Part shown: positions 6,969-58,492 of the stretch, in pieces
Numbering within the stretch: the first letter of the stretch is position 1
Layout: each line of letters starts with the position of its first letter
Source: Candidatus Zixiibacteriota bacterium
Lineage (GTDB): Bacteria > Desulfobacterota > Binatia > UBA9968
Direction: 5' to 3'
DNA length: 64,000 nt
NCBI GenBank assembly: GCA_035574315.1
Contig: DATLYW010000012.1
Location: 209,741-273,740 of the forward strand
Notes under the pieces: model-generated
What the model was told of the DNA's origin: nothing
Seen by the model: only the letters and a program-made list of their open reading frames with translations
Database searches by the model: none
Translations under genes and position numbers: made by a program

Positions 6969-9416
<2,448 letters not shown>

Positions 9417-9468
9417 TTAAAAAATCCCTTAAAATTAATGCACTTACGCTTTCAAAGGAACCAGTCGA

Positions 9469-9497
9469 ATCATAGCGGAAATGCCCTCGAAAGTAAA
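9469..9497 (-). promoter_or_regulatory. Sigma70-type promoter for gyrB operon
   Basis: Minus strand TTTACT (9497-9492), N17, TATGAT (9474-9469), about 70 bp upstream of the gyrB ATG, in an AT-rich gap. Confidence 0.6.
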
Positions 9498-9628
9498 GCT
9501 TTTTGTGGCCCCTAACGGGGCGATTTTTAAAGAAAATTTCATCCCTCGCCAGTCCGCCCGAAAACCCCCGGCAAAGGCCGCTGGAAAGCCCGGTTGACAG
9601 CCCTGCTTCCTTGCGTCAAAACGGAGCG

Positions 9629-10336
9629 GTGAAACCGGCCATTACGGCACTCGCGTTCCTTACCGCGCTGCAGCGCCTTGGAAAGACGCCGCCGGAGCCG
9701 CACCGGATCGGCGCCATGGCCGGTTGTTTTCCGCTGACCGGGCTGATCCTGGGCGTTGCGTTGTTGCTTTCGGATCGCTTGCTTCAGCCCCATCTCGACT
9801 CCGAGGTGCTGAGCGCGGTTCTGGTTCTGGAGCTTGCGCTCTTGACCGGCGGGATGTCTCTCGACGCGCTGCGCGGGACGTTCGCCCGCCTGCCCGGAAG
9901 CCTGAGCTTCGGCGGCTCCGGCACAGGCGAAACCTCGGGTCTGCTCGCCCTCTTTTTCGTTCTGATGCTCAAGGTCCGAACGATCGAAGTCGCGGGCGAC
10001 TCTCGCTCGATCGATCTCCTGCTCGCTCCGGTGTTCGGCCGTTGGGCGCTCGTGATTTACCTCTACGGGGCTGCCGCCGCCGCGGGCGAGCCTCTTCGAT
10101 CGATCGCCGCAGGCGTCAGGCCCCTGCAGCTTTTTCTGGCCACTGCGATCGCGTTGGTGTTGGCGGTCTACCTCCTCGGGCGGGGCGCGCTCTGGATCGG
10201 CCTGGTCGTTTCTCTTGCGACGCTTCTCGCGCGGAGTTGTTTCGGCAAATGGGCCGGAGCACCCTCGCTGGATGGAGCGGGCGGAGTCGTGGAGCTGGCG
10301 GAAACGCTGGCGCTCCTCCTGCTTTCCGTGCTGTGA
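9629..10336 (+). CDS. Degenerate CobS-like membrane protein (probable pseudo-enzyme)
   Basis: Likely GTG start at 9629 after GGAG. CobS-like hydrophobic layout (ALAFLT...FPLTGLILG...LLAPVFGRW...ELAETLALL), but the HxDGLxDxxD and DSRxG motifs are lost. Confidence 0.7.
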   Translation: MKPAITALAFLTALQRLGKTPPEPHRIGAMAGCFPLTGLILGVALLLSDRLLQPHLDSEVLSAVLVLELALLTGGMSLDALRGTFARLPGSLSFGGSGTGETSGLLALFFVLMLKVRTIEVAGDSRSIDLLLAPVFGRWALVIYLYGAAAAAGEPLRSIAAGVRPLQLFLATAIALVLAVYLLGRGALWIGLVVSLATLLARSCFGKWAGAPSLDGAGGVVELAETLALLLLSVL

Positions 10337-27682: not shown

Positions 27683-28393
27683 TCAGATGTTTTCCATCAA
27701 ACCGGCCAGGCGGGTCTTGGCGACGTTATGGTCCCAGATCTTCTGCACGACCGCATCCCTGCGTCGCCCTTTCATCACTCTCCGGGTCTCGTCGTCGGTG
27801 TAAACGCGCACTGCCCCGAGAAGCGACGCTTTGTAGAAGCGGGCGGCGGCCTCTTCGAGATCAATGCATGCCGCAAACGTCCATTCGATCGACTGTCCCA
27901 CGACCATCGACCCGTGGCCCCTGAGGATCACCGCGTCCCGGTCGCCGAGAGCCCGGGCCACCGCGTCGCCCTGCTCGATTGTATGGATCAACGCAGGGTC
28001 CATGTAGAGCGGCATCGGCCCCGGCCCGAAAAACGCCCCCGGATTGGAAGAGGCGGGAAAGAAGGGCCTGTCCACCATGCTGAGCACCGCCACCATGTGG
28101 TTGTGCAGGTGGGCGATGCTGCGGACGTCGGGGCGTGCCTTGTAGCCGCGCGCGTGCATGTAAACCTCGGACGGCGCCCTGTACTTCCCTTCCACCAGAT
28201 TGCCCTCGAAATCGGCGACGACCATGTCGTCGGCGCGGACCGTCGCCCGGCTCACGGGATGAGGCAGAATGAGAAAATGCTCGGTGCCCGGAATCCGGGC
28301 GCTGATGTGACCGCTGTAATCGACGAGGCCCGCATTGAAAAGCATCCGCGACGACATGGCCAGCTTGATTCTGAGATCCGATAACTCCGACAC
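27683..28393 (-). CDS. Class II aldolase/adducin family protein
   Basis: GTG start 28393 with GAGGAG; SGHISAR, SEVYMH, HLH, LRGHG. Confidence 0.88.
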   Translation of the reverse strand: MSELSDLRIKLAMSSRMLFNAGLVDYSGHISARIPGTEHFLILPHPVSRATVRADDMVVADFEGNLVEGKYRAPSEVYMHARGYKARPDVRSIAHLHNHMVAVLSMVDRPFFPASSNPGAFFGPGPMPLYMDPALIHTIEQGDAVARALGDRDAVILRGHGSMVVGQSIEWTFAACIDLEEAAARFYKASLLGAVRVYTDDETRRVMKGRRRDAVVQKIWDHNVAKTRLAGLMENI

Positions 28394-49212: not shown

Positions 49213-51861
49213 TCAGGCGTGGGCGTCGGCCCAGTTCCGGGCCACGTGGATTTCCACCGCGAGCCCGCAGCGCAGCTCCGCCGCGTGTGTCATCTCCTGC
49301 TCGATCAGCGCGCGCGCCCGCTCGAGCCTTTCCTCGGGAATCTCGAACACCAGCTCGTCGTGCACGGTGAGAAGCATTTTCCCGACCGGCTCGCGCCGCA
49401 GCGCGGAGTCCACGCGGATCATGGCCTGCTTCAGGATGTCGGCGGCGCTTCCCTGGATCGGCGTGTTCAGCGCCATGCGTTCTCCCAGCGCCCGCAGGCG
49501 GAAATTGGCCGAGTTGAGCTCCGGCAGGTAGCGCCGGCGCCCGAACATGGTGGTGGTGAAGCCGTTGATCCTGGCCTGCTCGACCTGCGTTCGCAGAAAG
49601 TCCTTGACCTTCGGAAACTGGGCGTAATAGGCGTCGATGAACTCCTCCGCGACGTCGAGCTCGACGCCCAGGCGCTGCGAGACGCCGAACGCCGACATGC
49701 CGTAGGCGATCCCGTAGGAGAACTGCTTGACGGCGCTGCGCATCTCGGGGGTCACTTCGGAGAGCGCCACGCCGTAGACCTTGGCGGCGATCGCCGCATG
49801 AAAGTCGCGGCCGTGCGCGAACGCCTCGAGGAACTGCTCGTCTCCCGAGAGATGCGCCAGCACGCGCAGCTCGATCTGCGAATAATCCGCCGACAGCAGC
49901 ACGTGGCCCGCCGGCGCGATGAAAGCCCGGCGGATCTGCCGGCCGGTCTCGCCGCGAATCGGAATGTTCTGCAGGTTGGGAGCGGTCGAAGACAGCCGGC
50001 CGGTCGCGGCGGTCGTCTGCTCGTAGGTGGTGTGGATGCGCTGCGTGCGCGGGTCGATCAGGCCGAGCAGCGCTTCGGTGAAGCCGGTCCGCAGCTTCGC
50101 CACCTCGCGGTACTCGAGCAAGCAGCCGACGATCGGATGGGCGCCTGCGATTTTTTCCAGCTCCGCCGCGTCCGTCGAGTACCCGGTCTTGATCCTCTTG
50201 GTTTTGGGCAGCCCGAGCTTCTCGAACAGAATCCGCTGCAGCTGGGGATTCGAGTTGACGTTGAACCGCTCTCCCGCGAGCTCCTGGACCCTTTGCTCGA
50301 GCGCGCTCATTTTCTCGCGGAACTCCGCGTTGAGCTTCTCGAGATAAGCGCGGTCCACCAGAATCCCCTCGTGCTCCATGCGTGCCAGGACCCCGACCAG
50401 GGGAAACTCGAGGCGCACGGCCAGCTCCCAGAGCTCGCGGCTGCGGAGCTGGCTTTCCAGGACCCCAGCCAGCGAGCGAACCGCAACCGCCTCCCGGCAG
50501 ACGCGGCCTCGCTCCTGCTCGGGGAACGCGAGGGAGGGTTGCTCCGCGGCGCTCCCGACGCCTTCCTCCTCGAGCGTAACGCCCAGATAGCGGCCGACCG
50601 TTTCCCCGAGGCTGTAACCTCGTGCCAGACCCGGCTCGAGCAGATAGGCAGCGATCTTGGTGTCGCAGCGCAGTCCCCGCAGCTCGATGCCCGCAGCCAG
50701 CGCCGCGCGGCAGAGAGGCTTGGCGTCGTGCGCGATCTTTTCCCGGCGCGGGTCCTCGAGAAAATCCTTCAGCCCGGCGAGCGCCTCGGGAAAACGCGCG
50801 ACGCGCGCTTCGCCCGCGGCACTGGAGGCCGCGATCCAGTTCGCGCTCCAGGCGAGCGCGACCGGGCCCTCGCCCAGCTCGCGGCCCGGGCCGAGATCTC
50901 CGACCGATCGGAGCTCCACCGAATCCGAAACGTCCGGGGCCGGATCCTTGAGCTCCTTAAGGCGCTCGTGCAGCGTGCGAAACTCCAGCGCCGTAAAGAG
51001 CCTGCGGACCTCCTCGTCGTCCCACGGCTCGAGGCGCAGGCTCGCCGGCTCCGTCTCCAGCGGCACGTCGTCCCGAAGCCGCCCCAGCTCCTTGTTGAGG
51101 CGCACCTGCTCCGCGTGCGCCTTGACCGCGTCCCTGAGCTTCGGGGTCAGCTCGTCGGCATGGGCGATCACCTGCTCGATGTCGCCGTACTTGGCGATCA
51201 GCTGCGCGGCGGTCTTGTCGCCGATCCCGGGAACGCCCGGGAGATTATCCGAGCTTTCTCCCTTGAGCGCGACGAAGTCGATCCATTTTTCCGGCGGCAC
51301 GCCGTACCGCTCGGCGACCCCGGCCGCGTCGTAGCGGGTCACGTCCGTGATCCCGCGCCGCGTCATCACTACGGACACGCCGTCGCGCACGAGCTGCAGG
51401 ATGTCGCGATCGCCGGTCACGATCACCACCTCGGAGCCCTCCTCGCGACAGCGGCGCGTCAGGGTGGCGAGCAGATCGTCCGCCTCGTAGCCTTCGAGCT
51501 CCAGTGCGGGAATCCGCAGCGCCTGGAGCACCTCGCGGATGAGCGGCAGCTGTTGCCGGAAGGCGTCGGGGGCTTCCGCCCGCCCGGCCTTGTAGTGCTC
51601 ATAGCGCTCGAGCCGAAACTGCGGCGCTCCTTTATCGAAACAGACCACGACCGCGTCGGGTTGCTCCTCGGCCATGAGCTTGATGAGCATCGAGGTGAAG
51701 CCGTAAACCGCGTTGGTGACCTGGCCCGAAGAGGTAACCAGCGTCTCCGGCAGGGCGAAAAAGGCGCGATAGGCGAGCGAATGACCGTCGAGCAGGAGGA
51801 CCTTGCGCCGCCCCTTCGCGCTTCCTGCCGCAGGCGTCGCGTTCTTGTTCTTTGCGGCCAC
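49213..51861 (-). CDS. polA: DNA polymerase I
   Basis: 5' nuclease (LLDGHSLAYRAFFA, EADD, GDRD, GESSDNLPGVPGIG.KTA), motif A DYSQIELR, motif B KQFSYGIAYG, motif C VHDEL; the 3'-5' exonuclease domain looks degenerate. Confidence 0.97.
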   Translation of the reverse strand: MAAKNKNATPAAGSAKGRRKVLLLDGHSLAYRAFFALPETLVTSSGQVTNAVYGFTSMLIKLMAEEQPDAVVVCFDKGAPQFRLERYEHYKAGRAEAPDAFRQQLPLIREVLQALRIPALELEGYEADDLLATLTRRCREEGSEVVIVTGDRDILQLVRDGVSVVMTRRGITDVTRYDAAGVAERYGVPPEKWIDFVALKGESSDNLPGVPGIGDKTAAQLIAKYGDIEQVIAHADELTPKLRDAVKAHAEQVRLNKELGRLRDDVPLETEPASLRLEPWDDEEVRRLFTALEFRTLHERLKELKDPAPDVSDSVELRSVGDLGPGRELGEGPVALAWSANWIAASSAAGEARVARFPEALAGLKDFLEDPRREKIAHDAKPLCRAALAAGIELRGLRCDTKIAAYLLEPGLARGYSLGETVGRYLGVTLEEEGVGSAAEQPSLAFPEQERGRVCREAVAVRSLAGVLESQLRSRELWELAVRLEFPLVGVLARMEHEGILVDRAYLEKLNAEFREKMSALEQRVQELAGERFNVNSNPQLQRILFEKLGLPKTKRIKTGYSTDAAELEKIAGAHPIVGCLLEYREVAKLRTGFTEALLGLIDPRTQRIHTTYEQTTAATGRLSSTAPNLQNIPIRGETGRQIRRAFIAPAGHVLLSADYSQIELRVLAHLSGDEQFLEAFAHGRDFHAAIAAKVYGVALSEVTPEMRSAVKQFSYGIAYGMSAFGVSQRLGVELDVAEEFIDAYYAQFPKVKDFLRTQVEQARINGFTTTMFGRRRYLPELNSANFRLRALGERMALNTPIQGSAADILKQAMIRVDSALRREPVGKMLLTVHDELVFEIPEERLERARALIEQEMTHAAELRCGLAVEIHVARNWADAHA

Positions 51862-51903: not shown

Positions 51904-53436
51904 TCAGAGAACCTCTTGCGGGAGCAAGGCGGCGGGATCGCGGATTGTCTTGCCCGAGGCGGTCCGGGGCAGCGACTCTCGGATGACGATCCGCTGCGGC
52001 ACCTTGAAGGTCGCCAGATTGGCTCGGAGGAAAGCGAGCAGCTCCTTCTCGGCGATGCGCGCGCCCGGGCGGGGAACCACCGCGGCGCCGATGGTGACGC
52101 CGCGCTTTTCATCGGGAATCGGGAAGACCACCGCCTCCTGCACCTCCGGATAGTTGTAGATCATGTTCTCGACCTCGGCCGGGTAGACGTTCAGCCCCCC
52201 GGTGATCATCATGTCGTCGCGCCGCCCGAGGTGGTAGTAGTAGCCGCTCGGCTCCCGAACGCCGACGTCGCCGGTGTAGAGCCAGCCGCCGCGAATCCGG
52301 GCCGCGGTCGCTTCCGGCTTGCGGAAATAGCCCTTCATCACGTGGGGTCCCCGGGTGATGATCTCCCCGGCCTCCCCGTCGGGCAGCTCGGCGCCGCTTT
52401 CGTCGACGATCTTGACCTCGACCCCCGGAACCGGGCGGCCGATGCTGCCCATCTTCGCCGCCGCCTGCTCGGGCTCTACGATCGTGATCAGCGGCGAGGT
52501 TTCCGTCAGACCGTAGCCCTGGATCACCTTGACGTGGGGCTGGGCGGCGTGAAAGGCCCGAAGCAGCGGCACCGGCACCGTCGTTCCCATCATCGCCGCG
52601 ACGCGGACGCTGCTCGTGTCGTACTCCGCGAGGTTGCGCACCCCGAGCAGCAGCTGAAAGACCACCGGCACGCCTTCGAAGACCGAGATGCGGTGGCGTT
52701 GAATCCCCTCGAGCAGCGCCACCGGATTGAGCTGATCGAAAATCACCAGGGTGTAGCCGCGCACGGCCAGCTCGTTGCAGACGATCGGGCCGACGATGTG
52801 CGACATCGGCAGGACGCAGCCGCGCACCGTGTCCGAATCCGTGATCCCCAGCGCCGCCATCACGCGCGGATACTGCGCCAGGTTTTCGTAGCTCAACACC
52901 ACTCCCTTCGGCTCACCGGTGGTGCCCGAGGTGTAGAGGATCAAGGCGTCGTCCTCCGGGGACGGATGCGGCAAGCGCAGCTCGCCCGCCGGAGTGGCCC
53001 ACCGCCTCTCGAAGCTCCGCTCGCCCTCGCCCTGCACCACCCATACCGGCGCCGCGCCGCCGATCGCCTCCTCGGTTTCCTGAAAGAGCTGGTGCTGGAT
53101 CACGAGGAGCTTCAGATCCGCGTCGCGAAGCACCCCCTGCAGCTCCCGGCCGCGCAGCCGCGCGTCCAGGATGACGGTCACCGCGCCGATCTTCTGCGTC
53201 GCGTAGTAGGCGAGCGGGATCGCGGTGGAGTTCGGCAGGAGCACGCCGACGCGATCGCCCGGGCGGATCCCTTCACGCTGCAAATAACCGGCGAGAGCGT
53301 GTACGCGCCGGTTGAGCTCGGCGAAGCTCAGCGCTTCCTGTTTCGCGACCAGCGCCGTCTTCTGCGGCCGGCGGGCCGCCGTCCGCTCCAGCTCCTCGCC
53401 CGCGAAGAAACCTACTCGATCGGTATCCTTCTCCAT
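51904..53436 (-). CDS. Long-chain acyl-CoA ligase family (class I adenylate-forming) enzyme
   Basis: YTSGTTGEPKG, GYGLTET, WLYTGD, GR.DDM.ITGG.NVYP.EVE, FKVP, PRTASGK. Confidence 0.92.
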   Translation of the reverse strand: MEKDTDRVGFFAGEELERTAARRPQKTALVAKQEALSFAELNRRVHALAGYLQREGIRPGDRVGVLLPNSTAIPLAYYATQKIGAVTVILDARLRGRELQGVLRDADLKLLVIQHQLFQETEEAIGGAAPVWVVQGEGERSFERRWATPAGELRLPHPSPEDDALILYTSGTTGEPKGVVLSYENLAQYPRVMAALGITDSDTVRGCVLPMSHIVGPIVCNELAVRGYTLVIFDQLNPVALLEGIQRHRISVFEGVPVVFQLLLGVRNLAEYDTSSVRVAAMMGTTVPVPLLRAFHAAQPHVKVIQGYGLTETSPLITIVEPEQAAAKMGSIGRPVPGVEVKIVDESGAELPDGEAGEIITRGPHVMKGYFRKPEATAARIRGGWLYTGDVGVREPSGYYYHLGRRDDMMITGGLNVYPAEVENMIYNYPEVQEAVVFPIPDEKRGVTIGAAVVPRPGARIAEKELLAFLRANLATFKVPQRIVIRESLPRTASGKTIRDPAALLPQEVL

Positions 53437-54398
53437 AGCGCAAACGCCCTCTGAAATGGTTTGTACCAGCGGGAAAGCCGCGCCAGCTCGCCGCGGCGCA
53501 GCTCGAGCTTTCCCTGCTGCGTCGCGAGGAACGGATCGATCCTGCCGCAAAAGACCGCCCGCCACCACTCCGCCTTTCCGCCGATCAGGAACTCCCCGTC
53601 GCTCCTCTCGCGCAGACCGCGGATTTCGCCGTGGGCGAAATCGACCGTCCATGCGGCTGCGGTGTCGTCGAGGCGGAGGGTGAGAGAGGTCGTCAGATCC
53701 GTCCGTTCCCCTTCGGCCCGGAATTCCGGGTCGCTGTTGGCGGTCGCGACGAGCGCTTCCATGTGCGCGCGCGAAAACAGCGCGTGTGCCGGTCCCGCCG
53801 AGGCCGGCGGCTCCGCCTCGGCGCCCGCCGACGGCTCTGTCCCGTTCAGGCGCTCGTTGAAGAACTGGCAGCGAACCGCTTCCTCCAGGAGATCCGTGTA
53901 GAGAAAGGCCTCCTCCAGGCTTCTTGCGGCGGCGACGGTACCGTGACCCTTCAGAATCGCGATCGGGCCGTACTTGAGCGCCTCCACCAGCGCTTCAGGC
54001 TCGGTCACGGTCGGCGTTTCCTGCGGGATCACCGGCACGCGGCCGATGGTGTACTTCTCCTCGAAGCTCGCCGGGATGAAATGGCTCCGGGCGAGCGAGA
54101 AGGCCACCACCGCCGGAGGATGCGCGTGAACGACCGCCTGGGCGCCGCACCCCTGATAGACCGCCAGGTGCATCGGCGTCTCGCTCGAGGCGCGGCGGTT
54201 TTTCGCCCGCGTTTTTCCGGTCTCGTCGATGCGCACGAGATCGCGCGGGGTGAGAAATCCGAGCGGGGCGTGCTGCGCGGTGATCAGGAACTCGCGCCGG
54301 CCGAGGCGCCGGCTGAGGTTTCCGCCCCAACCGCTTACCAGCCGGCGCTCGAAGAGAAGCCTGCCCCAGCGGATCATTTCGCGCTCCGCCGCGTTCAC
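53412..54398 (-). CDS. Class II aldolase (FucA/MtnB/Ald2-like) fused to C-terminal SCP2 lipid-binding domain
   Basis: GTG start with GGAGGAG; GGNLSRR, SSETPMH, HAH, GHG; after an Ala/Pro linker an SCP2-like tail (W..VF.G.IDPF.A..QGKL.L..G). Confidence 0.85.
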   Translation of the reverse strand: MNAAEREMIRWGRLLFERRLVSGWGGNLSRRLGRREFLITAQHAPLGFLTPRDLVRIDETGKTRAKNRRASSETPMHLAVYQGCGAQAVVHAHPPAVVAFSLARSHFIPASFEEKYTIGRVPVIPQETPTVTEPEALVEALKYGPIAILKGHGTVAAARSLEEAFLYTDLLEEAVRCQFFNERLNGTEPSAGAEAEPPASAGPAHALFSRAHMEALVATANSDPEFRAEGERTDLTTSLTLRLDDTAAAWTVDFAHGEIRGLRERSDGEFLIGGKAEWWRAVFCGRIDPFLATQQGKLELRRGELARLSRWYKPFQRAFALWRRIPIE

Positions 54399-55918
54399 TC
54401 CTCCCCTCCCGCCCCGCCGCGCAGCACGGCCCACGGCAGAGCGTCGTTCTCGACGGCGTAGATCGAGGCCCCTTCGGGACAGACCCGCGACCCCAGAAAG
54501 GTCGCGACGTCGCGGTCCGCCGCCTGCGCTTGATCTTCACCCGCCTCGATCAACTCGACGGCGACGCCGTGCAGCCGGGCGAGCTGCGCCGCGAGCAACG
54601 CCCCGCAAGGCGCAACCACGCCCCGCTCGTTCATGGCCTGGTAGAAAAGGTAGACCTTGGCGATCTCTCCGGCAGAAAAAAGCGCTCCCATCATGGCGTC
54701 CGAGATCAGCGCCGTCGGCACGCCGCGACGAAGGAGCGCGGGGACCGCCTGACGAGCCCCCCGCAACTCCGGCCGCATCTCGGCAACGAGCACGTTCTCG
54801 GCCTCCTCCGCCTTGAGCGCGTGGCGGAGAAAAGAGCAGCCGCTTTCGCCCGGCACGCCGTAAACCAGCAGGTAGCGCGCCGCCCCTGGCCGCTGCCCCG
54901 CGTCCGAACAAGACCCTGCGTACCGGAGCCGAAATTCCGCCGGGCTCAAGACCCCCTCGAAGGTCACGAACGAGGTGATCAGCTCGCCCGGGGTAATGTC
55001 GAACGCCGGGTAGCGCACCGCCACCGCGGCGCCTTCGGCGGGCACTACCGGCCGGCCCTGAAACGTGAGCAGCTCGCTTCCCGGCCGCTCCTCGATCGGC
55101 GCATCGCCGCCGCGCTCGAGGCCGCGCGGCTCCTGCACCAGAGCGTAGAACGGGATCCGATACTCCCGCGCCATCAGCGCCAGCGGATAGGTCCCGACCT
55201 TGTTGACGATGTCGCCGTTGCGCGCGACGCGATCCGACCCGACCAGCACACAGTTGACCGCGCCCCTGGCCATCGCCTGCGCGACGGCGCAGTCCGGGAT
55301 AACCGCGACATCGATGCCGGCGCGCGCGAGCTCCCAGGCGGTCAGCCTGGAGCCCTGGAGATACGGACGGGTTTCGGTCGCCATCACCGAAAAATCCTTC
55401 CCCGCCGCGCGCGCCGCCGCGGCCACGGCCACCAGCTCCCCGCTGATGTTGCAGTGGGTGAGCACCCGCGCGGACTCGGGCAGAAGGGCGGCCGCGTGCC
55501 TCGCTCTGGCGCGACGGGCCTCGACGATTTGCGCCGCGAAGCGCCGGGCCTCGCCCGCCACCCATTCCCCGGCTCCGGCTTTCGGCCAGCGCTCGAACGA
55601 GCTTTCCAGGACTGCGGCGAGCCCGGCGAAATCGAACGTCGGCCGGGCCGCGCGAAACCGTTCCGTCATCGCGCCGAGCCTTTCCCGGAGCGACTCCGGA
55701 TCGCCCCCGTGGGCCTGCCCGAGCAACGCCGCGCTGTAGAGAAACGCGAGCACCTGCCCGAACGCCCGGGTCTTCATCTCGCGCACGGCGTCCACCGCTT
55801 CCCCGATCTCCCGCACGCGCAGATAGGCGATGCGCTCCGGCAGAGCCGTCTCGTCGAGAATCCTGAACCCGTCTCCGTCCCAGAGGACGGGCTCGAACAG
55901 AGGGCTTTCAGCGGTCAT
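54395..55918 (-). CDS. MtnA-like ribose-1-phosphate isomerase (eIF2B-alpha fold) with duplicated C-terminal domain
   Basis: ILDETALP, MKTRA, RPT, THCN, ETRPYLQGSRLTAWEL, GSDRVARNGDIVNKVGTY, IEER, PAFDITP, then a second degenerate copy (VAEMRPELRGAR...). Confidence 0.85.
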   Translation of the reverse strand: MTAESPLFEPVLWDGDGFRILDETALPERIAYLRVREIGEAVDAVREMKTRAFGQVLAFLYSAALLGQAHGGDPESLRERLGAMTERFRAARPTFDFAGLAAVLESSFERWPKAGAGEWVAGEARRFAAQIVEARRARARHAAALLPESARVLTHCNISGELVAVAAAARAAGKDFSVMATETRPYLQGSRLTAWELARAGIDVAVIPDCAVAQAMARGAVNCVLVGSDRVARNGDIVNKVGTYPLALMAREYRIPFYALVQEPRGLERGGDAPIEERPGSELLTFQGRPVVPAEGAAVAVRYPAFDITPGELITSFVTFEGVLSPAEFRLRYAGSCSDAGQRPGAARYLLVYGVPGESGCSFLRHALKAEEAENVLVAEMRPELRGARQAVPALLRRGVPTALISDAMMGALFSAGEIAKVYLFYQAMNERGVVAPCGALLAAQLARLHGVAVELIEAGEDQAQAADRDVATFLGSRVCPEGASIYAVENDALPWAVLRGGAGGEE

Positions 55919-55940: not shown

Positions 55941-56675
55941 TCAGAGGTGGCCTACGGCGCGCCGCGCAACCTCCAGGATCTTCTCTTCCGCGGCGAGAAA
56001 CGCGGGGTCGCGAAAGCCGAACCGCGCGTGCAGGCACTCATCGGAGACGGCGAGAATCGCGCCCGCTTTCTTTTGGCGCACCTGGGCGACCGTGAGAAAC
56101 GCTGACGTCACCATGTCGATCCCCGCTACTCCCTGGGCGTTGAGTTGCTCGATGAGCTCCGGGGTCTCCTGAAAGAGCGCATCGATCGTGAAGATCGAGC
56201 CCGTATGGCAGCGCAACCCCAGGCTCGCCGCCGCCTCGGTCAGGGCGCGCACGACTCCCGGATCGGCCTTGGTGGCGAAGCCGTCGGGAACGTAGTAGCG
56301 GCTGGTTCCCTCCCCGCGCAGCGCTCCGGTGACGATGATCACATCTCCGACCCGGATTCCCTCCTGCAGCGAGCCGCAGCTCCCGACTCGAATCAGCCAC
56401 TCGGCGCCGGCGGCGCAGAGAATTTCCGCCGTGATCGCGCTGTCCGGCGCGTAGCGTCCTCCGTTTCCCACGGTGACACGCCTGCCCTCCAGCTCGCCGG
56501 TGTGCATCTCGTAATCGAGAAACGTGAAGTTCTTCACCGGCCGCTCCAGGCTTCGGAGCAACGCCTGGCTTCGCTCGCGGGGACCGGGGACGAGGGCGTA
56601 CGGCCCGAGCGAGTCCTTCTTGAGACCGAGAAGCGAGAGCATGCGCTCGGGCGTGAAATGAGGCTCGGCCAGCAT
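55941..56675 (-). CDS. Nucleoside phosphorylase (uridine/purine phosphorylase, PNP_UDP_1 family)
   Basis: ATG 56675; LVPGPRER, IRVGSCGSL, GDVII.TGA.RGEGTS..Y, G.IFTIDALF.ET, IDM.TSA...V. Confidence 0.88.
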   Translation of the reverse strand: MLAEPHFTPERMLSLLGLKKDSLGPYALVPGPRERSQALLRSLERPVKNFTFLDYEMHTGELEGRRVTVGNGGRYAPDSAITAEILCAAGAEWLIRVGSCGSLQEGIRVGDVIIVTGALRGEGTSRYYVPDGFATKADPGVVRALTEAAASLGLRCHTGSIFTIDALFQETPELIEQLNAQGVAGIDMVTSAFLTVAQVRQKKAGAILAVSDECLHARFGFRDPAFLAAEEKILEVARRAVGHL

Positions 56676-56676
56676 G

Positions 56677-57900
56677 TCAGAGCGCCTGCAGCACGAGCTC
56701 GAGGAGATCCTGCGACGGCAGGGCACGCTCCAGGGCCGCAAAGCTCCGTCGGCAAAGCGCGCTCGTGGTGAGCACCAGCTCGGCGCCCGCCGCTTCCGCC
56801 TCCCGCATCCGGTCGGCGGCGTTCCATTGCGCCAGCTCCGGGTACGCTTCGGGAACTCCGCCCCCGCCGCCGCAGCACCAGGACCAGCGTCCATTGCGCT
56901 CCATTTCCCGCAGCTCCACCCCGGGCAGCATCCGCAGGAGATCTCGCGGCGCCCCGTAAACTCCGCAGCCGCGGCCGAGGTGGCAGGAGTCGTGATACGT
57001 GACGCGCCGTGGATTCCGCTTCGTGAAGCGGAGCCTGCCCTCGCGCGCCTGGCGTTCGACGTACTCGGTCCCGTGCAGGATCTCGACACCGGGATCTTTC
57101 TCCCGAGCGTATTCGCGCCACATCCGAAGACAGCTCCCGCAGGCGACCACGACGCGGCGCGCACCCGAGGCGGCGAGCTGCTCGAGGTTCGCCTTCCTCA
57201 AGCGCTCGAACTCGGCGCGAAAGCCCAGATCGAAGGCGTAAAGGCCGCAGCAGCGCTCCTCCGGTCCCATGATCGCGAAGTCCTCGCCGCACCGCTGCAT
57301 CAGCCTTGCGAGCGCGACGGCCGAGGCGCGTCCTTCTTCACGATCCGCCGAGCAGCCGGCGAACAACCACGTCGATGCTTTTCCCGCCTCGGCGAAGGTC
57401 CTCAGCCCGAGACCGGCCGCCCATCGGCCGCGCTCGGAGCGGGGCAGGGCCCAGGGATTGTCGTGCTGCCGAAGTCCTTCGAAGATCGGCCGGTGCGCCG
57501 CTATCGGACCCTCTTTTTCGGCGATCTCCTCGCGCATCGCCACCGTGATGTCCCAGGGGCCGTAGCCGTCGTTGCGCACGCCGCAAAGCTCCTGGCACAT
57601 CAGGCAATTGGTGCAGGTGTAGACGACCTCCTTGAGCTCCGGTGTGACGGCGTCGAGGCCGTGGAAGACCCGCTGGGCCATCAGCCACCGCGACTTCGGC
57701 GTGAAGCGCTGAAACCGGTAGAATTCGTACGGAGGGCATTTGCTGGCCGGCCCGGGAACGTCCTCGAAAGGATTTGCCGGCCCGTGGCCGTAGCACGAGC
57801 CGCAGAGCACGCAGCCCGCCCCGCGCGCACCGGTGTCTTTGGCATAAAGCCACCGCCGCACTCTCCGCAATCCGGAATCTTTCGTTTCGAGCCCGGCCAC
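56677..57900 (-). CDS. HdrD/GlpC-like (Fe-S)-binding oxidoreductase with two CCG domains
   Basis: CVLCGSC...CP, CTNCLMCQELC, AGC...RCCG...CGSC, YHDSCHLGR...WCCGGGGG. Start is uncertain (GTG 57900 or 57861) because the track's TTG at 57951 lies inside the promoter. Confidence 0.88.
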   Translation of the reverse strand: MAGLETKDSGLRRVRRWLYAKDTGARGAGCVLCGSCYGHGPANPFEDVPGPASKCPPYEFYRFQRFTPKSRWLMAQRVFHGLDAVTPELKEVVYTCTNCLMCQELCGVRNDGYGPWDITVAMREEIAEKEGPIAAHRPIFEGLRQHDNPWALPRSERGRWAAGLGLRTFAEAGKASTWLFAGCSADREEGRASAVALARLMQRCGEDFAIMGPEERCCGLYAFDLGFRAEFERLRKANLEQLAASGARRVVVACGSCLRMWREYAREKDPGVEILHGTEYVERQAREGRLRFTKRNPRRVTYHDSCHLGRGCGVYGAPRDLLRMLPGVELREMERNGRWSWCCGGGGGVPEAYPELAQWNAADRMREAEAAGAELVLTTSALCRRSFAALERALPSQDLLELVLQAL

Positions 57901-57919
57901 GATCTGCGCGCGAAAATTC

Positions 57920-57933
57920 GTTAAGGCCTTAAC
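57920..57933. promoter_or_regulatory. 14-bp perfect palindrome, candidate operator
   Basis: GTTAAGGCCTTAAC directly downstream of the -10 box of the operon promoter. Confidence 0.55.
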
Positions 57934-57961
57934 TTTATAACTCTGGAACAATCGCTGTCAA
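57934..57961 (-). promoter_or_regulatory. Sigma70-type promoter of the Fe-S/phosphorylase/isomerase/aldolase/ligase operon
   Basis: Minus strand TTGACA (57961-57956), N16, TATAAA (57939-57934); TAAAGT at N18 is an alternative -10. Confidence 0.65.
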
Positions 57962-57997: not shown

Positions 57998-58456
57998 TCA
58001 ATTGGAGGCCGCCGAGGCGTCGTGGTTGAGCTTGCGCAGGAGCGCCGAGAGCTCTTTTTGCTGCGCCGGGTCGAGCGCCGAAAAGATCTGCGCCACGCTC
58101 CTTTCGAACAGCGGGATCGTGCTCTTGTAGAGCCGCACGCCCTTTTCGGTCAGCACCACGTGGACCACGCGCCGGTCGCGCTCGTCGCGCTTGCGGGCGA
58201 CGAGCTTTTTTTCTTCGAGCCGGTCGACGATCCCCGTCAGATTGCTCACGGTCACCATCATCTTGGCACCGATCTCGCCGAAAGGCAGACCTCCCGCGTA
58301 GCCGATGGTGGCGAGGACGTAGAATTGAGGGGGCGTGAGGTCAAGCTTTTCCAGGTCGCTTTCGAGCTTCTTGTGGGAGAGAAGGCTGAAGCGCAGAAAA
58401 CGAACCCATAAGCTTGTAGAATAGCGCGTGAAGAAAGGACGCTTTCCGACCGTCAC
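57998..58456 (-). CDS. MarR family transcriptional regulator
   Basis: LTPPQFYVL, NLTGIVDRLEEKKLVAR.RD..DRRVV.V.LTEKG; probable GTG start at 58456. Confidence 0.92.
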   Translation of the reverse strand: MTVGKRPFFTRYSTSLWVRFLRFSLLSHKKLESDLEKLDLTPPQFYVLATIGYAGGLPFGEIGAKMMVTVSNLTGIVDRLEEKKLVARKRDERDRRVVHVVLTEKGVRLYKSTIPLFERSVAQIFSALDPAQQKELSALLRKLNHDASAASN

Positions 58457-58463
58457 GGAAGCC

Positions 58464-58492
58464 AATGTAAACAGAGGGCCAGAAAAAAGCAA
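58464..58492 (-). promoter_or_regulatory. Sigma70-type promoter of marR, probably leaderless
   Basis: TTGCTT (58492-58487), N17, TACATT (58469-58464), 7 nt, then GTG at 58456. Confidence 0.6.

Follow-up and report, generated by a model that had tools for sequence, protein, structure and literature searches.

What does a class II aldolase gain from a domain of the lipid-binding SCP2 family attached to its C terminus? The question is raised by a gene in a 64,000-nucleotide stretch (the window) of contig DATLYW010000012.1, positions 209,741 to 273,740 of the forward strand, from the Candidatus Zixiibacteriota bacterium assembly GCA_035574315.1 (GTDB class Binatia). The gene, at 53412-54398 of the window on the minus strand, is a single uninterrupted open reading frame (ORF) of 328 codons followed by a TAG stop codon, and its full-length homologs share 57-68% identity with it. 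The encoded protein joins an aldolase domain to an SCP2-fold domain and is very probably the aldolase of a module that resembles the dihydroxyacetone phosphate (DHAP) shunt. Whether this module handles a hydrophobic substrate is considered below against a simpler salvage role and other alternatives.

Architecture of the fusion protein

The N-terminal Aldolase_II domain (PF00596; residues 6-178, 53865-54383, minus strand) matched its Pfam family and FucA-type structures (2fk5, 2irp, 4c24, 6voq, and 6btd). It is followed by a linker rich in Ala, Pro, Glu, and Gly (residues ~185-206, 53781-53846, minus strand; columns ~190-222 of the homolog alignment) and by an SCP2-fold domain (residues ~207-328, 53415-53780, minus strand) recognized by profile and structure matches. 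An initial annotation had described a complete class II aldolase, a linker, and an SCP2 domain, an architecture that the Pfam match, the homologs, and the fold match bear out. The C-terminal domain, put at ~115 amino acids in that annotation, is SCP2-like as proposed but slightly longer, at ~122 amino acids. The fusion and its SCP2 fold are almost certainly real.

The linker varied in both length and sequence in an alignment of 34 homologs and had a predicted local distance difference test (pLDDT) score below 50 in the full-length AlphaFold model. Such a flexible, poorly conserved linker suggests that SCP2 is tethered as a carrier and does not form a rigid lid. The full-length model itself (pLDDT, 67; predicted template modeling score, 0.49; residues 94-153 with pLDDT below 50) was not good enough to show how the SCP2 domain is positioned with respect to the active site.

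Aldolase domain

The Aldolase_II profile was matched over positions 1-182 of 183 with 134.5 bits (gathering score, 22.2; E value, 4.9e-39). The ligand residues proposed for the domain were all present: E73 in SSETP (54180-54182), H77, H91 (54126-54128) and H93 (54120-54122) in VHAHPP, and H152 (53943-53945) in GHG, with the catalytic and metal residues spanning 53943-54182 on the minus strand. These residues aligned with the matching motifs of solved FucA-type aldolases, with E73, H91, H93, and H152 at the positions of their FucA counterparts, and they were invariant or nearly so in the 34 homologs. The motifs SSETP, HAHPP, and GHG corresponded to SVES/SSE, HAHP, and GHG of FucA-type enzymes. 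Likewise, the phosphate-binding motifs GGNLS and SSE aligned with AGNFS and SVE/SSE of 2fk5 and 4c24.

When the family profile was compared with solved structures, FucA-type aldolases matched the domain over its full length (E values, 1e-20 to 1e-11). Human MtnB (4m6r) matched marginally (E value, 0.045), and the MtnB profile (TIGR03328) reached 50.8 bits against a cut-off of 137.05, over residues 10-98 only. As this match is restricted to the N-terminal half and lies far below the cut-off, it argues for an aldolase rather than a dehydratase. The NCBIfam match to the decarboxylase OtnC was also weak (78 bits). FucA proteins (Thermus 2FK5, E value 7e-19; Escherichia coli 1FUA) were the best relatives among solved structures and have the GN, SSE, HxH, and GHG motifs in common with the fusion. 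In contrast to FucA, the window protein fell below all FucA family cut-offs (37-66 bits on TIGR01086, NF040649, and others, versus cut-offs of 250-400), has a fused SCP2 domain, and has no fucose genes nearby. The structure of DrdA (6btd) was matched at an E value of 1e-9, a modest sequence similarity that ranks behind those of the FucA-type proteins. In public databases, the fusion proteins are annotated as "L-fuculose-phosphate aldolase" or "class II aldolase/adducin family protein."

SCP2 domain

On its own, the C-terminal domain of the window protein missed the PF02036 gathering score (16.8 versus 21.3 bits; E value, 0.0088), while 23 of the 34 homologs matched this family at E values of ≤0.1, the best at 1.2e-5. 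With the family profile, two SCP2 structures from Thermus were retrieved, 1wfr (E value, 5e-4) and 2cx7 (E value, 1e-3). Many relatives, among them many distant, Omnitrophota-type ones, carried precomputed assignments to both PF00596 and PF02036.

An AlphaFold model of the isolated domain, built from a diverse alignment, had a pLDDT of 96.2. Foldseek matched this model most closely to 1wfr/2cx7 (E value, ~1e-10; template modeling score, 0.82-0.85), so that profile and structure both assign the domain to SCP2. These entries represent TT1886 of Thermus thermophilus, which shares 26-28% identity and the same order of helices and strands with the domain; however, the Thermus protein is free (130-143 amino acids), whereas the window domain is tethered to an enzyme. 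The next matches were AF1534, UbiJ-SCP2, the C-terminal domains of alkylsulfatases, and animal SCP2. There were 39 PDB matches at E values of ≤1e-3, and all among the matches listed were SCP2-fold proteins.

The alkylsulfatases SdsA1 and Pisa1, human MFE-2, and UbiJ, which were Foldseek matches as well, likewise pair a C-terminal domain of the SCP2 fold, whether fused or merely cooperating, with an enzyme that acts on amphipathic substrates. Their partners are a metallo-beta-lactamase-type sulfatase, a dehydrogenase/hydratase, and the ubiquinone synthesis machinery, respectively, whereas the partner in the fusion is a class II aldolase. Nothing pairing SCP2 with a class II aldolase or with fuculose was found in the searchable library, in agreement with the initial remark that no characterized fusion to a sugar-phosphate aldolase was known.

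Distribution of the fusion

The fusion is widespread and is therefore not an artifact of this assembly. A word-indexed protein search returned more than 1,000 relatives, of which the best 120 were all full-length (326-342 amino acids; 62-68% identity). When the SCP2 domain by itself was used as the query in an exhaustive search, 76 representative clusters were recovered at identities down to 26%, most of them 318-342 amino acids long with the domain at the C terminus, and all full-length representatives carried the aldolase domain. Clusters in the ESM Atlas that are automatically named Aldolase_II/SCP-2 were mostly from Binatota, with one from Myxococcota. Scanning one genome per species, we found 75 fusion loci, mostly in metagenome-assembled genomes (MAGs) labeled Candidatus Binatia or "Deltaproteobacteria bacterium." A second large clade, ~34% identical to the window protein and labeled Candidatus Omnitrophota, was represented in at least 240 metagenome stretches. 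Within the phylum of the window genome, 12 of 301 sampled genomes carried the fusion, spread over six families.

Five near-identical Binatia-type loci (L074, L073, L028, L001, and L005) were found in MAGs labeled Heimdallarchaeota, Actinomycetes, Chloroflexota, Limnocylindrales, and Udaeobacter. With 63-67% identity and an unchanged gene order, they are more likely the result of binning contamination than of gene transfer.

A natural fission into separate genes was considered and rejected: two entries of ~150 amino acids that look like stand-alone SCP2 proteins (P0176 and P0178) begin inside the C-terminal helix of the aldolase. At one locus (L186; G289:C54, ~9241-10213), aldolase and SCP2 are in different frames, with the shift located in the linker near an A-rich run; this could reflect an error in the sequence or a genuine frameshift, and the two short entries look as if they arose in a similar way. 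Together, these apparent split genes are probably frameshifted copies or gene-calling artifacts.

Operon organization in the window

The fusion gene occupies the fourth position in a compact operon on the minus strand, downstream of a gene for a MarR-family regulator (57998-58492, likewise on the minus strand). The first gene encodes a CCG/4Fe-4S (HdrD/GlpC-like) protein (56677-57951), followed by a nucleoside phosphorylase of the NP-I family (DeoD/Udp type, not MTAP type; 55941-56675, 244 amino acids, ATG at 56675) and an MtnA-like aldose-1-phosphate/ketose-1-phosphate isomerase of the IF-2B family (54395-55918, 507 amino acids). The GTG start codon of the fusion gene is preceded by a GGAGG-rich stretch and shares four nucleotides (GTGA) with the TGA stop codon of the isomerase gene. 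At the other end, its last 25 nucleotides overlap the ATG start of a translationally coupled gene for an AMP-binding acyl-coenzyme A (CoA) ligase (51904-53436). This ligase is FadD/feruloyl-CoA-synthetase-like, closest to the feruloyl- and fatty-acyl-CoA synthetases FadD5 and FadD13 and not to acetyl-CoA synthetase.

The isomerase core (residues 8-327) is extended by ~180 residues (~328-507) that form a second, partial IF-2B-like domain; the extension alone matched Pfam IF-2B at an E value of 4.5e-10. On the MtnA profile TIGR00512, the protein scored 237 bits, below the cut-off of 279.

This order (CCG protein, phosphorylase, MtnA-like isomerase, fusion, ligase) is typical of the Binatia-type clade, in which all four core genes were present, and the ligase gene was adjacent to the fusion, in 53 of 53 loci. 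This count, and that of 34 for the Omnitrophota-type clade below, includes only loci with enough flanking sequence. The CCG/Fe-S protein was considered as a further core member and rejected: its gene is kept in the Binatia-type clade only (52 of 53 loci) and had no match in Omnitrophota-type loci.

Previous research described DHAP shunt aldolases whose genes cluster with those for an MtnA-paralog isomerase and for either a nucleoside phosphorylase or a kinase (PMC6079011). The fusion gene shows the same clustering, with phosphorylase and MtnA-paralog isomerase genes beside it. It is very probably the aldolase of a DHAP-shunt-like module. The initial annotation as a sugar-phosphate aldolase was correct as to the class II aldolase but missed this likely role, namely, the third step of a DHAP-shunt-type module rather than a general sugar aldolase.

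The module in other clades

The core genes remained clustered across clades, although their order changed. Omnitrophota-type loci begin with genes for a PadR regulator, ligase, phosphorylase, MtnA-like isomerase, a small IF-2B protein, the fusion, aldehyde dehydrogenase (ALDH), and a B12-binding radical S-adenosylmethionine (SAM) protein of the BchE/HpnJ-like type, and continue with those for an ApbA-like reductase, a SnoaL-like protein, and two ketoacyl synthases. Core genes and ALDH were found together in 33 of the 34 loci. In a third clade, which belongs to the phylum of the window genome and includes a complete 2.54-Mb genome (G039), the order is MMPL, B12-binding radical SAM protein, phosphorylase, MtnA-like isomerase, small IF-2B protein, fusion, and ALDH, followed by two LolA-like/DUF1329 genes, DUF1302, and three tandem ligases. 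A fourth arrangement (G035) comprises MMPL, LolA-like/DUF1329, DUF1302, a zinc-dependent alcohol dehydrogenase, a DeoC-family aldolase, the fusion, the ligase, a PGM/PMM mutase, and an LpxL-type acyltransferase.

In the Omnitrophota-type and third clades, the IF-2B extension of the window isomerase is a separate ORF of 155-176 amino acids (e.g., L078:6449-6979 and L185:10698-11165) directly after an isomerase of 296-335 amino acids. The isomerase is thus a conserved two-part enzyme that is fused in Binatia.

Genes for MMPL (RND type, with a weak match to the sterol-sensing domain), LolA-like/DUF1329, and DUF1302 outer membrane proteins flanked the fusion at four loci (L185, L189, L190, and L187, in genomes G039, G144, G205, and G035) representing two different cluster types. 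These families are associated with the transport of hydrophobic compounds; members have been connected with the metabolism of monoterpenes in Castellaniella (AmeA, AmeB, and AmeD) and with growth on fatty esters in Pseudomonas.

Radical SAM genes and salvage paralogs

The gene for the BchE/HpnJ-like radical SAM protein adjoins the module in two clades (e.g., L078:9493-10965 and L185:12766-14226). In the 301 genomes, this family was present in 14, i.e., in 10 of the 12 fusion carriers versus 4 of the 289 noncarriers. The two carriers lacking it (G035 and G289) represent a variant that also lacks the phosphorylase and the isomerase. Because related genomes are not independent, we regard this co-occurrence as a strong lead and not as a statistic. 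The window genome has two copies of the radical SAM gene (contig C40, 18745-20175; contig C9, 62189-63661), neither of them linked to the module, and the neighborhoods of these two paralogs offered no informative context.

The window genome also encodes a canonical MtnA (contig C8; 449 bits versus a cut-off of 279) and a canonical MTAP (contig C16; 317 bits versus 275). As both canonical salvage enzymes are encoded elsewhere, the operon module is paralogous to them. No MtnB scored above the cut-off in this genome.

Proposed pathway

From gene context and active-site residues, we infer a pathway that would follow the logic of the DHAP shunt. The phosphorylase would split a 5'-modified nucleoside into its base and a pentose-1-phosphate, which the MtnA-like isomerase, with its extra IF-2B half-domain, would convert to a pentulose-1-phosphate. 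The fusion, as a FucA/DrdA-like metal-dependent DHAP aldolase, would cleave this product into DHAP and an aldehyde bearing the former 5' substituent. The aldehyde would be oxidized to the acid, for which an ALDH is present in the clusters outside Binatia, and the acid would be converted to its CoA thioester by the FadD-like ligase. The SCP2 domain may hold the greasy tail of the substrate, or it may capture the aldehyde product and hand it on. In two clades, the ALDH gene immediately follows that of the fusion, and a CoA ligase is present throughout; both fit such a sequence from aldehyde to acid to acyl-CoA.

Several features favor a hydrophobic aldehyde over acetaldehyde. These include the SCP2 domain fused to the aldolase, the FadD-like nature of the ligases and their triplication in G039, the enlargement of the isomerase, and, in two cluster types, the neighboring genes for MMPL, LolA-like/DUF1329, and DUF1302 proteins. 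We lean slightly toward a substrate or product that is hydrophobic. The complete scheme, in which the 5 substituent and hence the aldehyde are hydrophobic and the aldehyde is held by SCP2 and then converted to the acid and the acyl-CoA, is our preferred reading but could equally well prove right or wrong. Of the two suggestions in the initial annotation, an amphipathic substrate or product agrees with the gene context (FadD-like ligase and MMPL, LolA-like/DUF1329, and DUF1302 genes), while nothing tested supports membrane targeting.

A number of observations weigh against this pathway. The aldolase domain missed every NCBIfam equivalog cut-off (best, NF006413 with 132.8 versus 203 bits), and the type of reaction (aldolase, decarboxylase, epimerase, or dehydratase) is accordingly assigned from context and residues. 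A simpler substrate, 5'-deoxyadenosine or 5'-methylthioadenosine (MTA), would fit the first three enzymes, and, as the window genome has no MtnB, the window aldolase may have a part in ordinary salvage as well. Some proteins with an SCP2 fold carry no lipid, for example, Eis-type acetyltransferases, which were weak Foldseek matches. In Binatia, the ALDH, radical SAM, and lipid transport genes are not adjacent to the fusion. Finally, gene order inside one clade could be inherited synteny. The gene for DNA polymerase I that comes after the operon in the window (49213-51861, minus strand) is also found downstream in 7 related loci, so part of the local gene order is indeed inherited synteny.

The radical SAM gene permits a more specific version of the hydrophobic-substrate pathway. 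HpnH attaches a 5'-deoxyadenosyl group to diploptene. By analogy, the BchE/HpnJ-like protein might use SAM to adenosylate a hydrophobic acceptor with a 5'-deoxyadenosyl group, with the module trimming the adduct, although we consider this unlikely. Phosphorolysis, isomerization, and SCP2-tethered aldol cleavage would then leave C4' and C5' of the ribose on the lipid as -CH2-CHO, which would be oxidized and converted to a CoA thioester. If true, the ribose of SAM would supply two carbons or serve to activate an otherwise unreactive hydrocarbon, a type of pathway not previously described. Two other substrates were considered as well. Cleavage of the side chain of an endogenous adenosylhopane was rejected, as no match to squalene-hopene cyclase (TIGR01507) and no HpnH above its cut-off were found in any of the 12 carriers, including the window genome. 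A futalosine branch, from aminofutalosine to a succinylbenzoate isomer, is disfavored, as MqnA/MqnD (PF02621) and MqnE were not found above the cut-off in the window genome.

Alternative explanations

Among the alternatives, by-product salvage is possible but less probable than the hydrophobic-substrate pathway. Here, the module would recycle 5'-deoxyadenosine released by the radical SAM enzyme, and perhaps MTA, to adenine, DHAP, and acetaldehyde (or methylthioacetaldehyde), which would be further converted to the acid and its CoA ester. The SCP2 domain would leave the substrate of the aldolase untouched; it would be a structural element or would bind the lipid substrate of the radical SAM enzyme, making the protein a "Rosetta stone" fusion at the level of the pathway. 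The three enzymes are exactly those of the known 5-deoxyribose/DHAP shunt, and a salvage role is consistent with the lack of an above-cut-off MtnB in the window genome as well as with the radical SAM gene, which is adjacent in two clades and unevenly distributed between carriers and noncarriers (10/12 versus 4/289). However, the window genome already encodes canonical MTAP and MtnA, whereas the module isomerase scores below the MtnA cut-off and has an extra domain, and the ligase is FadD-like and not Acs-like. Acetaldehyde would need neither an SCP2 domain nor three ligase paralogs, and salvage leaves unexplained why an aldolase-borne, putatively lipid-binding domain has been kept across three deep clades.

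The aldolase could also work in the biosynthetic direction, which we judge improbable. DHAP would be condensed with a hydrophobic aldehyde delivered by SCP2, and the resulting long-chain ketose-1-phosphate would form the head group of an envelope lipid exported by the MMPL, LolA-like, and DUF1302 proteins. FucA-type aldolases are generally reversible and accept many aldehydes, and the G035 cluster, with its LpxL-type acyltransferase, PGM/PMM mutase, DeoC-family aldolase, MMPL, LolA-like, and DUF1302 genes, would suit such a function. In addition, DUF1302/DUF1329/RND sets have been proposed in the literature to export a cell wall component. In contrast, an ALDH gene that immediately follows the fusion, as in two clades, fits the removal of an aldehyde better than its supply, and the phosphorylase and the isomerase would need to run in reverse.

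An MtnB-type dehydratase, or another nonaldolase such as a decarboxylase or epimerase, with an SCP2 appendage is very improbable: the weak matches to MtnB (50.8 bits) and OtnC (78 bits) and the lack of a recognizable MtnB in the window genome are outweighed by the restriction of the MtnB match to residues 10-98, the E value of 0.045 for 4m6r versus full-length FucA-type matches at 1e-20 to 1e-11, the lack of downstream methionine salvage genes in the cluster, and the ALDH and ligase genes, which fit an aldehyde product.

Relation to known systems

The chemistry proposed for the module is of a known kind; what is new is the SCP2 domain as a partner and the extended, uncharacterized module. The closest known systems include those with DrdA (Bacillus thuringiensis, 6BTD) or Ald2-type aldolases, which resemble the fusion in their class II fold, their metal and catalytic residues, and the adjoining genes for a phosphorylase (or kinase) and an MtnA-paralog isomerase distinct from the canonical methionine salvage genes. 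The known enzymes are, however, single-domain proteins of ~200-220 amino acids, to which the window protein adds the C-terminal SCP2 domain. Furthermore, the window isomerase has the extra IF-2B half-domain, the phosphorylase is of the DeoD/Udp and not the MTAP type, and the fusion cluster extends to ALDH, a FadD-like ligase, and a link to a B12-binding radical SAM protein.

The same shunt logic converts MTA and 5'-fluoro-5'-deoxyadenosine (PMC6079011). In the fluorometabolite route of Streptomyces cattleya, 5'-fluoro-5'-deoxyadenosine is converted to fluoroacetaldehyde and DHAP (PMC6079011). Here too, phosphorylase, isomerase, and class II aldolase act in this order on a 5'-modified adenosine to give a substituted acetaldehyde. 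Unlike the fusion clusters, that route involves no SCP2 domain, radical SAM protein, or lipid transport genes, and none of the clusters examined contained a gene for a fluorinase or chlorinase.

The DUF1302/DUF1329/RND sets of Castellaniella (AmeABCD) are induced by monoterpenes and needed for growth on them. In two lineages, all three families are encoded around the fusion in a way that resembles this set from anaerobic monoterpene degraders; however, they are only neighbors of the fusion, and the operon in the window lacks them.

In its known form, the DHAP shunt uses three enzymes to dispose of small SAM by-products. Its chemistry appears to have been rebuilt in several uncultured phyla (Binatia type, Omnitrophota type, and others) with the addition of an SCP2 domain, an enlarged isomerase, ALDH, fatty-acyl-type CoA ligases, a B12-binding radical SAM protein, and, in places, machinery for hydrophobic transport. 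If the substrate were a lipid-nucleoside adduct, the module would provide a new link between radical SAM chemistry and lipid or hydrocarbon metabolism, and SCP2 would gain a new catalytic partner. On a conservative reading, it is a widespread, unannotated salvage operon whose aldolase is labeled L-fuculose-phosphate aldolase in public databases. Even so, it offers four or five soluble proteins that can be tested directly.

Other Aldolase_II genes of the window genome

The window genome has eight Aldolase_II paralogs, one of which lies in the window itself (~27842-28363, minus strand). Another, on contig C50, adjoins a homolog of the LpxL-type acyltransferase gene. A third, on contig C48, is located ~4.5 kb from a gene pair for an alcohol dehydrogenase and a DeoC-family protein, which share 56-58% identity with their counterparts in the G035 cluster.

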